Below, one piece after another: positions 22,134-26,049 of a DNA stretch of 53,011 nucleotides. The position numbers were made by a program, and so were the translations under genes. Below the pieces are notes generated by a model. The model was not told the origin of the DNA, searched no databases, and saw only the letters and a list, made by a program, of their open reading frames with translations. Where the stretch lies: contig CAZAYU010000004.1 in assembly GCA_964489445.1 (NCBI GenBank), positions 141,198 through 194,208 on the forward strand. Direction: 5' to 3'. The stretch is from an uncultured Planctomycetia bacterium (GTDB taxonomy: Bacteria > Omnitrophota > Gorgyraeia > Duberdicusellales > 4484-171). Every line of letters begins with the position of its first letter. The first letter of the stretch is position 1.

Positions 22134-23000
22134 TTAAATAGATCCAACATAATATTTCCTTTCCTCTCTAAAAATCAGCCCTTTTATTTGCATTAAAGAA
22201 AGTAATGCGGAAACTTCCGATGATTGTTTCTGCATTTTCCTAATCAGTGTATCAATTTCCATTGGTTCTTGCTGTAAATTTTCTATCACTGCTCTTTCTA
22301 AAACACTTAGCTTTAAAACACTTTTATCTTTTCTTATAGTTCTAGAATCTGGAATATTATAATATTTTAAAATATCTCTGCTTTCGGTTACAATTTCCGC
22401 TCCTTGCTGAATTAATTTTGCCGTTCCTTCCGAAACCAAACTAGTAAGTGGTCCAGGAACAGCAAAAATTTTTCTATTATGTTGTTTAGCAAAATCAGCA
22501 GTAATCAATGACCCGCTTTTTATAGCCGCCTCTATCACCAAAACCGCTTGAGAAATACCGGAAACAATTCGATTGCGTTTGGGATAAGTCCAAGAAGCCG
22601 GAGGAAATATACCATTAAATTCTGAAATAACTAACCCATTATTATTTAGTATCTCTAAATATAATGTTTTCTGATATTCAGGATGAATTAAGCTGATTCC
22701 ACAAGGCATCACTGCAATAGTCTGTGTTCCCCCATCAATTGCCGCTTTGTGCGCAACAGCATCAATGCCAAACATAAATCCGGAAACTATGGTTATTCCC
22801 GCCTTAGCTATATCAGTTACCAATTTATTAGCGATAATCTTTCCGTAGACAGTCATTTTCCGAGAACCAACAACAGCTAAACAATTATCAAAAATACCCT
22901 TACTCCAGTTACCTTTATAGTAGAGTTGTTTTGGCGGAGAATTAATTTCCCTAAGCCTCTGAGGATACTGTTTATCATTAATCTTAACTACACCGCTCAT
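22134..23000 (-). CDS. dprA: DNA-processing protein A (Smf), short form lacking the N-terminal SAM domain
   Basis: YP..L..I..PP..LY.KG, AVVGSR, IVSGF..GID..AH, ISEF, RNRIVSG, EA...SGSL.TA, FAVPG; C-terminal winged-helix-like segment. Confidence 0.93.
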   Translation of the reverse strand: MSGVVKINDKQYPQRLREINSPPKQLYYKGNWSKGIFDNCLAVVGSRKMTVYGKIIANKLVTDIAKAGITIVSGFMFGIDAVAHKAAIDGGTQTIAVMPCGISLIHPEYQKTLYLEILNNNGLVISEFNGIFPPASWTYPKRNRIVSGISQAVLVIEAAIKSGSLITADFAKQHNRKIFAVPGPLTSLVSEGTAKLIQQGAEIVTESRDILKYYNIPDSRTIRKDKSVLKLSVLERAVIENLQQEPMEIDTLIRKMQKQSSEVSALLSLMQIKGLIFREERKYYVGSI

Positions 23001-23003
23001 ACT

Positions 23004-23276
23004 TTACACCCTATTATCGCAAGCCATCCTGTATGCTGATAACACCGAATCATTTAACAATTGACGAGCTTGTGCAGTTAATGGAAATGCGCTGCTATAC
23101 CATTTGTTATCTTTACCTGCTTCACACGGAACACCAACAAATAATCCATTTTTTCCTTCAACAATTCGAAATCCCTTTACTAAAAACTGCCCACTAATCG
23201 AAATATCACATATTGCTTTAGTCGATCCTTCCGTATTAAATTTATGAATCCGCGTAACCTTAAACTCTAAATCCAT
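23004..23276 (-). CDS. spoVG: SpoVG family nucleic-acid-binding protein
   Basis: V.RI.......KA....I...F.V.G.RIV.GK.GLFV..P....D.KW....P; GGGGGTG RBS. Confidence 0.85.
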   Translation of the reverse strand: MDLEFKVTRIHKFNTEGSTKAICDISISGQFLVKGFRIVEGKNGLFVGVPCEAGKDNKWYSSAFPLTAQARQLLNDSVLSAYRMACDNRV

Positions 23277-23625
23277 TTCAACACCCCCTTTTTGTTATGT
23301 CGCAAATCTAAACCTAAAATTGGTTAACTGATTAATTGGTGATTAGTTAAATCCTTTAAGAAACCAGATACCAATTACCAGTAACCAGAATTAGTTAACT
23401 ATGTTAAATAAGTTGAATAGGATAAATGAATTAGCGTGCAGACACGTGTACACGCATTTACCCTTTTCTCTTTTTTCGTCCCTTAATCCGTCGTCCTTCA
23501 TCCGTCAGAACTTGTTGTCGTTATTATAGTCTCTACCCTCTAACTTCTTCTCCCTCCATGCCATATACTCTTTACCTCACTAACCCTTAATTTTTATCGC
23601 TTATCACTTGCTATTCCCTTTACAC

Positions 23626-23657
23626 TAATAGACGTATCAAATTAAAAAATTCTTTCA
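23626..23657 (-). promoter_or_regulatory. candidate ECF-sigma promoter, copy 2 (upstream of spoVG-dprA-comM-yraN)
   Basis: TGAAAGAA-N15-CGTCTATTA; both boxes and the spacing are identical to the copy at 24294-24325. Confidence 0.6.
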
Positions 23658-23727
23658 AAAATTTTTTAATTTTTTTCACACAAGAATATACTGATAATTT
23701 ATGCTTTTTTTACTTGCGGATAAAACT

Positions 23728-24291
23728 TTAAGGACGGAAGGAATTAAACCGATTTTTTAATCGTTTGCTGATTTCATCATCATCCTCAGAAGAATGGCGC
23801 CGCCAAGAATCAATAACCATAATCAAAGTGCGGCCGTTTTCACTTTCAAATGCCCAGCGAATTCCCAAAACAAGAGAAATTACTAAACATTGGAAAAAAT
23901 ATTTAGGCAGAAAGAATGAAATAACAAATGCACTGATTGCTACAAAAAGAAATAAATATTTTTTCTTTCTTTTTCTATTCTTCCGAACATTATTTTCATT
24001 AGACTTAATTAATGCTTTTGCTTTTTCTATGAATTCTTTAGGCACTTTTGGCTGATTATTTTTCTTATTTAGACTTTCCGACTCAAATATTAAATTTAAT
24101 TGTCCACGGCAGAACCCACAACTGGCAAGGTGCTTCTCAATGCTTGAACATCTTTCTTTCTCGATATTCTGCATAAAGTAATCTATTAAATCTTGCTCAC
24201 AAATACAATCAATTGTTCTTTTTATTTTGGTATTTTCAAGTTCTAAATATTCTTTCAATATTCTTTCTTTTTGATCCATATTCCTCTCCAT
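23728..24291 (-). CDS. zinc-binding (ZAS) anti-sigma factor with two transmembrane helices
   Basis: HLASCGFC (HxxxCxxC), a basic stretch, then two hydrophobic helices; directly downstream of an ECF sigma. The start may be the second Met (24279). Confidence 0.8.
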   Translation of the reverse strand: MERNMDQKERILKEYLELENTKIKRTIDCICEQDLIDYFMQNIEKERCSSIEKHLASCGFCRGQLNLIFESESLNKKNNQPKVPKEFIEKAKALIKSNENNVRKNRKRKKKYLFLFVAISAFVISFFLPKYFFQCLVISLVLGIRWAFESENGRTLIMVIDSWRRHSSEDDDEISKRLKNRFNSFRP

Positions 24292-24293
24292 AT

Positions 24294-24325
24294 TAATAGA
24301 CGAAATTTATTCCGTTTTTCTTTCA
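24294..24325 (-). promoter_or_regulatory. candidate ECF-sigma promoter, copy 1 (between sigma and anti-sigma genes)
   Basis: TGAAAGAA-N15-CGTCTATTA; the TGA is also the stop codon of the sigma gene. Confidence 0.6.
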
Positions 24326-24892
24326 CAAATTATTCATTCCTTTTCTCTCTAAAGCTTGCTTTAGTTTTTGCTTGGTTCTGGAAATTACGGTAGAAACAGT
24401 ATTTATCGGTATGTGCATAATGCCAGAAATTTCTTTATGCGTTCGCCCTTCAAAAAGATTAAAATTAATGATTATTCTTTCTTTGTCGGATAAATTATTT
24501 ACAATGCTGTCAATTAACAAGGCTAAATCTCTCCGGCATAACTCTTGCCGCAAATTATCATCTTTTCCTTCTGAATCATTTATAGCAATTCTTTGATCCC
24601 TGCGAATTTTACCCCGCATAAAATCAACTGCTTTATTAGAAGAAATGACTACTAACCAACCAGTAATCGTTTTAGGATTTTTTATTTGCCGAAGCTTATC
24701 ACTGTTTAGAATAGAAAGAAATACTTCCTGAAATATTTCTCCAACATCATCCTGATTAAATTGAAACCCACTGTGAGCCAATCGTTTACGAATAGCCCAA
24801 TAAATTAATTTTGAGTATTTTTGAACAAATATATCCCAGGTCTTCTTCTGTTTATCAAGACATCCCTTTATCAATTCTGATTCACTAAACAT
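24323..24892 (-). CDS. ECF (group 4) RNA polymerase sigma factor
   Basis: Region 2 (W..FV.KY..., D...IFQEVF, W...I..N...D) and region 4.2 (L...ER.I..., EG..H.EI...M..P.NTV...ISR.K..L); 189 aa. Confidence 0.93.
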   Translation of the reverse strand: MFSESELIKGCLDKQKKTWDIFVQKYSKLIYWAIRKRLAHSGFQFNQDDVGEIFQEVFLSILNSDKLRQIKNPKTITGWLVVISSNKAVDFMRGKIRRDQRIAINDSEGKDDNLRQELCRRDLALLIDSIVNNLSDKERIIINFNLFEGRTHKEISGIMHIPINTVSTVISRTKQKLKQALERKGMNNL

Positions 24893-24941
24893 TAATAGCT
24901 AACTAATGAACTAAATGTGGGCAAATTAAAAAACTATACCT

Positions 24942-24980
24942 TTATAAAACCACTTTCCACCTTGAAGGTAGAAAGTGGTT
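24942..24980 (-). terminator. probable intrinsic terminator after the TPR gene
   Basis: AACCACTTTCTACCT-TCA-AGGTGGAAAGTGGTT: 15-bp stem that is fully paired on the minus strand (one G-U pair), followed by TTAT. Confidence 0.6.
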
Positions 24981-25020
24981 AACAACTCAACACAAGAAAA
25001 TAGAAACGTCCCTTTTAATT

Positions 25021-26049
25021 CTATTCCGCGATATTCGCCAGACCGCTTTCAGCAATTGCCTGGTAACGCTCATCTTCTTTTTCTTTGGCAACTTTTAGCA
25101 ATTCGGAAAACTCATTTTTCGCATTAGCTAAATCTTCTAATTCTAAATATGTTTCTGCAGCCCGCTGTTTGAAAAAAAGATTAGACGGATCAAGCTCAGA
25201 ACACTTTTTCCATTCTACGGCTGCATCATTTAGCATTCCAAATTCCATTAATGTTTGCGCGTAGCGACCACGTAAACCGGCAGAATTAGGATCTAATTCT
25301 ATCCGCTGTTTATATAATGCAAGTGCTTCTTTAGCTTTTCCCGATCCGGTATACGCACGCATTAAAATATCTGATGCTCCTTTATCTTCTGGATTCTTCT
25401 TCACTTTTGCCTCTAGTTTTTTAATAACTGAGTCGTAATCCTGATTTAATAATTGATAGTCAATCAACCGGGTAGTAATAGTCGTATCATTCGGTTGCTT
25501 TTTTTCTAAATCTTCATAAATTTCCACCACTTTACCCCAATCCCGTAAACAAACATAGCCTTCAGCAACTTGTCGAGGAATTGATAAATTCTTGGGATCT
25601 TTTTTTGCCTCTGCTTCAAGTTTAGCAATCGCCGGCTGGATTCCTTCTCCGGCTTCAGCAAGATTATAAAAATTAATGCTGGCCCAGCGTTTGATATCCT
25701 GAAAATCTTCAGAAACTAATATTTCTATCAATAAATTTTCTGCTTTTGCCTTATCAGTAATAATATAAACTTCTCCTAATTGGCGATTAATTGCAGAATT
25801 ATTCGGTACCAGCTTTTTTGCTTTTTCTAACTTTACTTGCGCTTCCTTAGGTTTATCCTGGATTAACAATTCTCCTGCTTCAATAAAAAGCTGTTCATAC
25901 TCCGGGATATCTTGCTCAACTATAACCGCCTCTATTACAGTTTGATCCTCAACTCCCATTTCCTCCTCAACAGCAAACACAGGCAAAGAAATAGTCACCA
26001 CACCAATAAGTAATAAAATTACCACCAACCATCTCTTCTTCATACCCAC
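25021..26049 (-). CDS. exported tetratricopeptide-repeat protein
   Basis: Signal peptide MKKRWLVVILLL...PVFA; repeated TPR-like A....KA..LxP.N / ELDP.N helical pairs; AGGAGGTG RBS. Confidence 0.85.
   Translation of the reverse strand: MGMKKRWLVVILLLIGVVTISLPVFAVEEEMGVEDQTVIEAVIVEQDIPEYEQLFIEAGELLIQDKPKEAQVKLEKAKKLVPNNSAINRQLGEVYIITDKAKAENLLIEILVSEDFQDIKRWASINFYNLAEAGEGIQPAIAKLEAEAKKDPKNLSIPRQVAEGYVCLRDWGKVVEIYEDLEKKQPNDTTITTRLIDYQLLNQDYDSVIKKLEAKVKKNPEDKGASDILMRAYTGSGKAKEALALYKQRIELDPNSAGLRGRYAQTLMEFGMLNDAAVEWKKCSELDPSNLFFKQRAAETYLELEDLANAKNEFSELLKVAKEKEDERYQAIAESGLANIAE

Follow-up and report, generated by a model that had tools for sequence, protein, structure and literature searches.

Duplicated motif flanking an anti-sigma gene as the probable promoter of the adjacent ECF sigma factor in an Omnitrophota bacterium

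Which promoter is recognized by an extracytoplasmic function (ECF) sigma factor whose own gene is not preceded by a visible copy of it? The question is raised by a locus in a 53,011 nt stretch of DNA (hereafter the window), which corresponds to positions C4:141198-194208 of a 1.9-Mb, 25-contig, 35% G+C, 92%-complete assembly whose related database records are metagenome-assembled genomes of Candidatus Omnitrophota. At this locus a gene for an ECF sigma factor is followed by a gene for a putative anti-sigma factor, and a bipartite motif, TGAAAGAA-N15-CGTCTATTA, lies on either side of the latter gene. The second copy of the motif precedes a block of genes that begins with spoVG. A preliminary description of the sequence proposed that the sigma factor drives its own inhibitor together with spoVG-dprA-comM-yraN, and does so without positive autoregulation. 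Our analysis supports this proposal, because the boxes of the motif are invariant across genera, the motif and the sigma gene are gained and lost together, and the only other ECF sigma factor of the genome can be excluded. We assign a probability of about 0.86 to the reading in which the motif is the cognate promoter of the adjacent sigma factor and would drive both the anti-sigma gene and the spoVG block.

A pattern scan of the window returned exactly two matches to the motif, both on the minus strand, at 24325-24294 (site 1) and 23657-23626 (site 2), and no match was obtained in 100 dinucleotide-preserving shuffles of the window. In site 1, the predicted promoter of the anti-sigma gene, the -35 box TGAAAGAA occupies 24325-24318 and the -10 box CGTCTATTA occupies 24302-24294, in the minus-strand context ...AATTTG-TGAAAGAA-aaacggaataaattt-CGTCTATTA-atATGGAGAGGAATATGG.... 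In site 2, the predicted promoter of the spoVG operon, the corresponding boxes lie at 23657-23650, followed by TTTTTT, and at 23634-23626, in the context ...aaaaaattaaaaaatttt-TGAAAGAA-ttttttaatttgata-CGTCTATTA-gtgtaaaggga.... The two copies are located as first described, with identity at 17 of 17 box positions and the same 15 nt spacing. The accompanying remark that their spacers differ completely is a slight overstatement, as the spacers agree at 4 of 15 positions, which is the level expected by chance. Also confirmed is the placement of site 1 at a gene junction: its TGA is the stop codon of the sigma open reading frame (ORF; 24892-24323), and the site ends 2 nt ahead of the first ATG (24291) of the next ORF. 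Site 2 lies 70 nt past the stop codon of the anti-sigma ORF.

A genome scan with the motif, which had been put forward as a check, was carried out on the whole assembly by both a mismatch search and a weight matrix. It yielded three sites, namely the two exact copies and one further copy with a single mismatch (16 of 17 positions; C3:174598-174567; TGAAAGAA-N15-CGTCTATTT) that precedes a Y1 transposase gene. With the core matrix the three sites score 28.6-31.7 bits, compared with 16.7 for the next best position and 7.8 for the 99.999th percentile, and site 2 is the top-scoring site of the genome. All three are intergenic or at a gene junction, and each is co-oriented with its downstream gene. 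A giant gene (31239 to >53009), whose start had been singled out for this check, runs off the end of both window and contig, and beyond these three sites none is present in the 92%-complete assembly; a copy ahead of that gene is unsupported.

The sigma gene (24323-24892, minus strand) encodes a protein of 189 amino acids that belongs to the ECF (group 4) sigma factors by its two sigma regions, its short linker and its score against TIGR02937 (sigma70-ECF; 70 bits, cut-off 42.9). Among Pfam domains, region 2 is matched weakly at approximately residues 23-95 (19.4 bits), and Sigma70_r4_2 is matched above its cut-off at residues 126-177 (36.4 bits), with about 30 linker residues between the two regions. 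When the family profile was compared with solved structures in the PDB, the best matches were SigW of Bacillus subtilis and sigma-E of Escherichia coli. Among NCBIfam models, none for a named ECF subgroup, whether equivalog or subfamily, was matched at its cut-off, the best being TIGR02985 (71.9 versus 126.4).

Many genera of the order to which this genome belongs have orthologues of the sigma factor (40-63% identity). The preliminary description had let its proposal depend on conservation of the motif beside such genes, and this conservation was found, with boxes and spacing near-invariant in 22 orthologous GTDB loci. Both sites are present in 18 of these loci and one site in three, and in the remaining locus the contig ends within the sigma gene; counted by site, site 1 is found in 20 of 22 and site 2 in 19 of 22. 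In an alignment of site 1 from 12 loci (A1), TGAAAGAA and CGTCTAT(T)A are invariant and the spacers vary, and the alignment of site 2 (A2) has boxes that are invariant or nearly so, again with variable spacers. Pooling of 53 unique sites gave the consensus aAAAaAaTTaAAAATTTT-TGAAAGAA-(AAA or TTT)N12-CGTCTATTA-N6-GGGG. The A/T-rich tract at the beginning of this consensus is represented in the window by AAAAAATTAAAAAATTTT (23658-23676, minus strand), directly 5′ of site 2, where it resembles an UP element and may act as one. The consensus form aAAAaAaTTaAAAATTTT recurs at site-2-type and other intergenic sites, and the tract is absent at site 1, where the 3′ end of the sigma coding region occupies that stretch. 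Homologues at a greater distance (28-35% identity) retain the gene order sigma, anti-sigma, spoVG, and site 1 takes variant forms with the same 15 nt spacing, for example TGAACGAA-N15-CGTCATATA and TCCAAGAA-N15-CGTCATATA. Some relatives depart from the usual arrangement. Genome G093 carries two full modules of sigma, site 1, anti-sigma and site 2 (C2:98058-99319 and C6:64020-65255), whose sigma factors are 63% and 58% identical to the one described here. In genome G074 (L073/L146) site 1 has been lost and the sigma and anti-sigma genes are 10 nt apart, with site 2 kept in a form that has the -35 variant TGAAAGTA.

The two boxes have the layout of ECF promoters. In B. subtilis, such promoters take the form tGAAACnTTTt ... 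CGTC/CGTA, and the -35-proximal T-tract at -30 to -26 modulates selectivity (PMC5758882); the -35 box of our motif resembles the TGAAAC of these promoters at five of six positions. The CGT of the -10 box, a hallmark of ECF promoters (PMC8103513), is present as CGTC, which is invariant in alignments A1 and A2 and in 53 of 53 unique sites, the latter having been selected by a pattern that already contained CGTCT. TGAAAG and CGTC are spaced 17 nt apart. If TGAAAG is placed at -36 to -31, CGTC would fall at approximately -13 to -10 and the start would lie 11-13 nt after its first C. Transcript 1 would then begin at about 24291-24289, followed by the ribosome binding site GGAGAGG at 24289-24283, and the transcript from site 2 at about 23623-23621 (all minus strand). 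With the starts placed in this way, the conserved G-rich block would come to lie at the extreme 5′ end of the predicted transcripts.

The distribution of the motif was compared with that of the sigma factor in 85 genomes of the order, using exact matches to TGAAAGAA-N15-CGTCTAT and a threshold of E <= 1e-25 for the sigma orthologue. The pattern has 122 sites in 31 of the 85 genomes, and a reversed control pattern has no matches; the sigma orthologue is found in 30. Motif and sigma occur together in 28 genomes, sigma alone in 2, motif alone in 3 and neither in 52 (Fisher p 7.7e-17). Of the two genomes with sigma alone, one has both sites in the one-base variant CGTCTTA and the other has a sigma gene truncated by a contig start. 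In genera that elsewhere possess the system, nine genomes lack the sigma factor, and none of the nine contains a single site, which reduces the worry that the association reflects mere phylogenetic inertia. The only other ECF sigma factor in the genome (C1:468934-469494) has an orthologue in 25 genomes, 5 of them with the motif, and this phyletic pattern rules it out as the reader of the motif. The remaining two region-4 matches in the genome are LuxR-type response regulators. Within genera, the two ECF sigma factors have a largely complementary distribution and are clearly both present in only 5 of the 85 genomes. For example, in genus g10 the sigma factor described here is found in G071 and G073 and the other in G009 and G072; G074 and G079 differ likewise from G075-G077 in g23; and in g5 the other sigma factor occurs only in G087.

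Several observations weigh against the assignment of the motif to this sigma factor. The -35 box reads AAG (GAAAG), not the classical AAC, and is invariant in this form in A1 and A2. Site 2 is located 353 nt from spoVG with a terminator-like hairpin (23455-23434, minus strand) in between, which makes control of spoVG-dprA-comM-yraN less certain here than in relatives with distances of 22-150 nt. Three genomes, G004, G078 and G024, carry the motif without a detectable sigma orthologue, all three being incomplete assemblies (80-91% complete). G024 has a single site, at a contig start, before spoVG, and the completeness of the other two is 80% and 91%. Finally, co-occurrence alone cannot separate the sigma factor from some other factor that is inherited with the same module.

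The promoter could accordingly be read by a different sigma factor, or it could need another regulator that travels with the module. Such an arrangement would accommodate the three genomes that have the motif and no detectable sigma orthologue, and also the fact that the motif co-occurs with the whole sigma/anti-sigma/spoVG module, not with sigma alone. We nevertheless consider it improbable. The genome encodes just two ECF sigma factors, and the second does not track the motif. A housekeeping sigma-70 promoter was rejected, given that the geometry is of the ECF type and not TTGACA-N17-TATAAT: the hexamer that sits 17 nt after TTGAAA is ACGTCT, and use of TATTAG would require a 22 nt spacer. 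Moreover, the housekeeping sigma factor is universal, yet the motif is absent from 54 of the 85 genomes. The three exceptional genomes are themselves only 80-91% complete, one of them having its site at a contig edge.

In this genome the predicted targets of the adjacent sigma factor are the anti-sigma gene, the spoVG(-dprA-comM-yraN) unit and one Y1_Tnp (IS200/RAYT-like) transposase gene, which the third site precedes by about 45 nt. Among the relatives, approximately 66 sites outside the sigma locus were examined, and about 30 of these precede Y1_Tnp genes of several diverged subfamilies. Others precede sigma-unlinked spoVG genes, ORF6N genes, tyrosine integrases, a Cas3-like gene, nucleotidyltransferase/HEPN-like genes, BrnT, Phd and CopG toxin-antitoxin parts, an NYN-domain gene and a few exported proteins. 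The gene for recA follows none of the approximately 66 extra sites examined in the order, and the 450 nt ahead of the recA gene in this genome (C2:260595) contain no copy of the motif. The theme of the regulon is DNA processing together with mobile or defence genes, which may represent either a coherent response or a cassette-borne promoter.

Two arrangements of extra sites deserve description in their own right. The third site of this genome and its Y1_Tnp gene (C3:173781-174689; L001 5782-6690) lie between inverted copies of a 30 nt element, GGGGACACGACACTTAA..., of which one copy is located upstream, overlapping the stop codon of a small gene, and two tandem 62 nt copies are located downstream. 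As the genome holds just these three copies of the element, the whole has the appearance of a small REP/RAYT-like or IS200-like cassette that contains an ECF promoter. In genome G003 (L097, L101), three sites precede genes whose small coiled-coil products carry tandem IKANSRD-type heptad repeats, and behind one of these genes lies a Y1_Tnp-like gene of 333 amino acids.

On this background it is worth considering whether the motif is a portable promoter of mobile Y1-transposase, ORF6N and toxin-antitoxin cassettes that arrived secondarily at the sigma locus, the apparent regulon being a product of mobility. The idea draws on the large share of extra sites (about 30 of 66) that precede Y1_Tnp genes, with ORF6N genes, integrases and toxin-antitoxin parts among the others, on the inverted 30 nt repeats that flank promoter and Y1 gene in this genome, and on G004, which has sites before an integrase and a Y1 gene and no sigma factor. 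It conflicts with the finding that the two syntenic sites at the sigma locus are the most conserved of all, with variant forms in class-level relatives, and with the fact that the motif-bearing Y1 genes within one genome make up several diverged subfamilies, not identical copies. We judge it marginally less probable than recognition by another factor. Because a sigma factor would still be needed to read the promoter, it complements more than it competes with recognition of the motif by the adjacent sigma factor.

The motif could, alternatively, be something other than a promoter. SpoVG proteins of other bacteria bind specific A/T-rich DNA, and conservation at these sites reaches past the boxes, to the upstream A/T tract and the downstream AAGGGG block, as might be expected if a DNA- or RNA-binding protein, for instance SpoVG, were bound there or if the motif were a conserved 5′ RNA element. 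We regard this as very improbable, since the two boxes are neither repeats nor palindromes of each other, and since the rigid 15 nt spacing, the strict co-orientation and the fixed distance to the Shine-Dalgarno sequence fit the contacts of an RNA polymerase holoenzyme. There is likewise no Rfam family and no significant fold: an Rfam search of 22900-25100 gave nothing meaningful and no match for the spoVG leader, whose predicted fold is no better than that of shuffles (z -0.04), the terminator-like hairpin being the one structure that stands out in it. That the pair is a chance or recent-duplication artefact without function, for which nothing speaks except the A/T-rich composition of the genome (35% G+C), is already refuted by the 0 matches in 100 shuffles, by the 122 true versus 0 reversed matches in the 85 genomes and by invariant boxes around diverged spacers.

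If the motif is the promoter of the adjacent sigma factor, the expression of the sigma gene itself must be considered. The preliminary description had seen no copy of the motif upstream of this gene, and the observation is borne out here by the mismatch and matrix scans and also within 3 kb upstream in 22 orthologous loci. The genes upstream of sigma in these loci differ between genera and are not syntenic. In the window, a search of the 128 nt ahead of the sigma gene gave no sigma-70-like match, and the 31 nt junction between the sigma and anti-sigma genes contains no terminator. A Shine-Dalgarno sequence is missing before the sigma ATG (24893-24910) here and in every orthologous locus (L062-L083), and the anti-sigma and spoVG genes have strong GGAGG-type sites; the missing sequence suggests deliberately weak translation of the sigma factor.

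Upstream of the sigma gene there is also a recurring 15-19-mer, AAAGGGACG(T/G)TTCTATTT, at 24993-25011 (minus strand), between the stop codon of a TPR gene and a hairpin. It occurs four times in the genome, the other copies being at C10:16491, C16:4807 and C16:2622, and 27 copies are found in 15 of the 85 genomes, including genomes without the sigma factor, compared with 4 control matches. In two other genera it lies 10-22 nt ahead of the sigma ATG. A weak autoregulatory site within the recurring 15-mer GGGACGTTTCTATTT upstream of the sigma gene was considered and rejected, as no -35 box stands at a suitable distance and sigma-less genomes have the 15-mer too.

The anti-sigma gene (23728-24279, minus strand) encodes 183 amino acids when read from the conserved ATG at 24279. 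It starts 43 nt past the sigma stop codon, and this synteny is kept in 20 of 20 alignable loci. The protein has an N-terminal ZAS motif, H-x3-C-x2-C, two hydrophobic segments that make up a membrane hairpin, and a conserved C-terminal tail, DSWRRHS..DDEIS.RLK.RF. In the alignment of 20 orthologues, H..(A/S).C.FC is invariant in 18, the domain being deleted in the other two sequences, and an upstream Cys is present in at least 80%. On the strength of this motif we place the protein in the ZAS (zinc-type) family and predict that it binds zinc. Its match to RsrA (TIGR03988) is weak (E 0.004), and the ORF matches no Pfam family. The two exceptional orthologues, from L079 and L083 of the G017 lineage, are 116 amino acids long and have lost the whole ZAS H-x3-C-x2-C domain through a 52-residue deletion; the membrane hairpin, the C-terminal tail and both promoter sites are retained.

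The suggestion that the anti-sigma mRNA is leaderless or near-leaderless needs correction. Translation from the ATG at 24291, which a leaderless mRNA would use, was rejected because this codon is not conserved, its place being taken in orthologues by TTG, GTG or no start codon. Conservation is seen instead in the ribosome binding site GGAGAGG, part of a G-rich block that begins 6 nt past the -10 box, and in the downstream ATG. This second ATG is separated from the -10 box by 17-19 nt in 19 of 20 loci and by 22 nt in L082, and it opens proteins with N-termini of the form MD(K/R)IE.... Thus, the mRNA appears to carry a very short leader of about 11-13 nt and not to be leaderless, with translation starting at the second ATG, 24279.

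Downstream of site 2 lies a long leader (23277-23625, minus strand), with 353 nt separating the spoVG ATG from the CGTCT core of the -10 box and a 5′-proximal Shine-Dalgarno-like AAAGGGA at 23621-23615. It is followed on the same strand by spoVG (23004-23276; Pfam SpoVG, E 4e-18), dprA (23000-22134; DNA_processg_A), comM (22086-20575; Mg_chelatase/ChlI) and yraN (20563-20180; UPF0102). The tight spacing of these genes, with gaps of 3, 47 and 11 nt, indicates that they probably form one operon, and the linkage of spoVG with dprA is also seen in relatives. In 20 of the 22 loci spoVG follows site 2, at a distance of 22-353 nt in 18 of them, this locus included. The leaders of the relatives measure 22-243 nt in 17 loci and 680 and 2044 nt in two, and the 353 nt found here is the longest of the 18. 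It is by extension from relatives with shorter distances that site 2 may be expected to reach spoVG-dprA-comM-yraN in this genome. All site-2-type sites have a Shine-Dalgarno-like block, AAGGGG or AAGAGG, 6 nt past the -10 box, including those at which the actual ribosome binding site and start codon follow only 70-350 nt further on. This block may be a conserved initial transcribed sequence or a 5′ stabilizer of the STAB-SD type.

These features can be assembled into a circuit. Region 4 of the sigma factor would read the -35 box TGAAAGAA and region 2 the -10 box CGTC(TATTA). Since the sigma gene has neither a motif promoter nor a ribosome binding site, the protein would probably be made at a low level from another, sigma-independent promoter, and some anti-sigma would probably be co-transcribed with it across the 31 nt junction. 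The membrane-anchored ZAS anti-sigma factor would hold the sigma factor until a signal releases it. Released sigma would then fire site 1, giving an mRNA for anti-sigma alone (11-13 nt leader) and thereby negative feedback and fast shut-off, and would also fire site 2, with its A/T-rich upstream tract, giving spoVG and probably dprA-comM-yraN by read-through.

Negative feedback without positive autoregulation has an experimentally demonstrated precedent. In Corynebacterium glutamicum, Northern blots and primer extension showed that housekeeping promoters serve sigH-rshA and that rshA alone has an additional promoter dependent on SigH (Busche et al., 2012; PMC3489674). The additional promoter has been taken to secure a surplus of anti-sigma and a rapid shut-down (PMC3489674). 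The absence of a motif copy upstream of the sigma gene gives our locus a similar predicted wiring: an ECF sigma factor, a ZAS anti-sigma factor directly downstream and an additional, here predicted, sigma-dependent promoter before the anti-sigma gene only. The differences are that RshA is small and soluble whereas the protein described here has a membrane hairpin and a conserved C-terminal tail, that the consensus is GGAAT-N16-19-GTT there and TGAAAG-N17-CGTC here, and that the SigH regulon concerns disulphide stress, heat and the SOS response in place of spoVG, dprA, comM and Y1 transposase-like genes.

The promoters of SigW, SigM, SigX and SigV in B. subtilis (Gaballa et al., 2017; PMC5758882) are a close match in sequence, with tGAAAC, a following T-tract in the spacer and a -10 of CGTC/CGTA, whereas the -35 described here ends in G (GAAAG) instead of C and the conserved -10, CGTCTATTA, is longer. 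The operons of the Bacillus sigma factors are also autoregulated, the promoter in question lying ahead of the sigma gene, and the regulons of these sigma factors concern cell-envelope stress. A third comparison is provided by BldN-RsbN of Streptomyces venezuelae (PMC6101532), where rsbN has its own promoter and is a direct BldN target and the sigma gene is under other control (BldD). RsbN, however, belongs to a different structural class with one transmembrane helix and no ZAS motif, and the BldN regulon comprises chaplins and rodlins in an actinobacterial lineage. Our locus departs from the classical picture in having AAG, not AAC, in the -35 box, in lacking autoregulation and in reaching no named ECF subgroup model. 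About 55% of ECF sigma factors are predicted to be autoregulated (PMC8103513), and the absence of autoregulation is therefore not exceptional.

Taken as a whole, the locus very probably represents a well-supported switch of a familiar kind in a little-studied phylum. A literature search found no paper on Omnitrophota sigma factors, and the pair described here would provide a concrete promoter and sigma factor, and a first regulon, for a phylum that has no cultivated model organism. ECF target promoters are normally predicted from autoregulated operons; in this case the junctions at anti-sigma and spoVG allow the promoter to be recognized even though the sigma factor is not autoregulated. The 32 nt motif could serve as a practical marker for annotating these genomes and as a source of orthogonal sigma-promoter parts. 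The unusual content of the regulon, spoVG-dprA-comM-yraN here and mostly Y1 transposase-like genes in relatives, hints at control of DNA uptake, recombination and mobile elements. Tentatively, and with more doubt than confidence, we suggest that the ECF sigma factor and its membrane ZAS anti-sigma factor may constitute the master switch of a DNA-transaction programme in this Omnitrophota order, comprising SpoVG, DprA, ComM, YraN, diversified Y1 (RAYT/IS200-like) genes, ORF6N regulators, integrases and toxin-antitoxin cassettes. If so, the system would be a sigma-based counterpart of competence or SOS-like regulons, in which a host sigma factor controls many domesticated or resident Y1 transposases.

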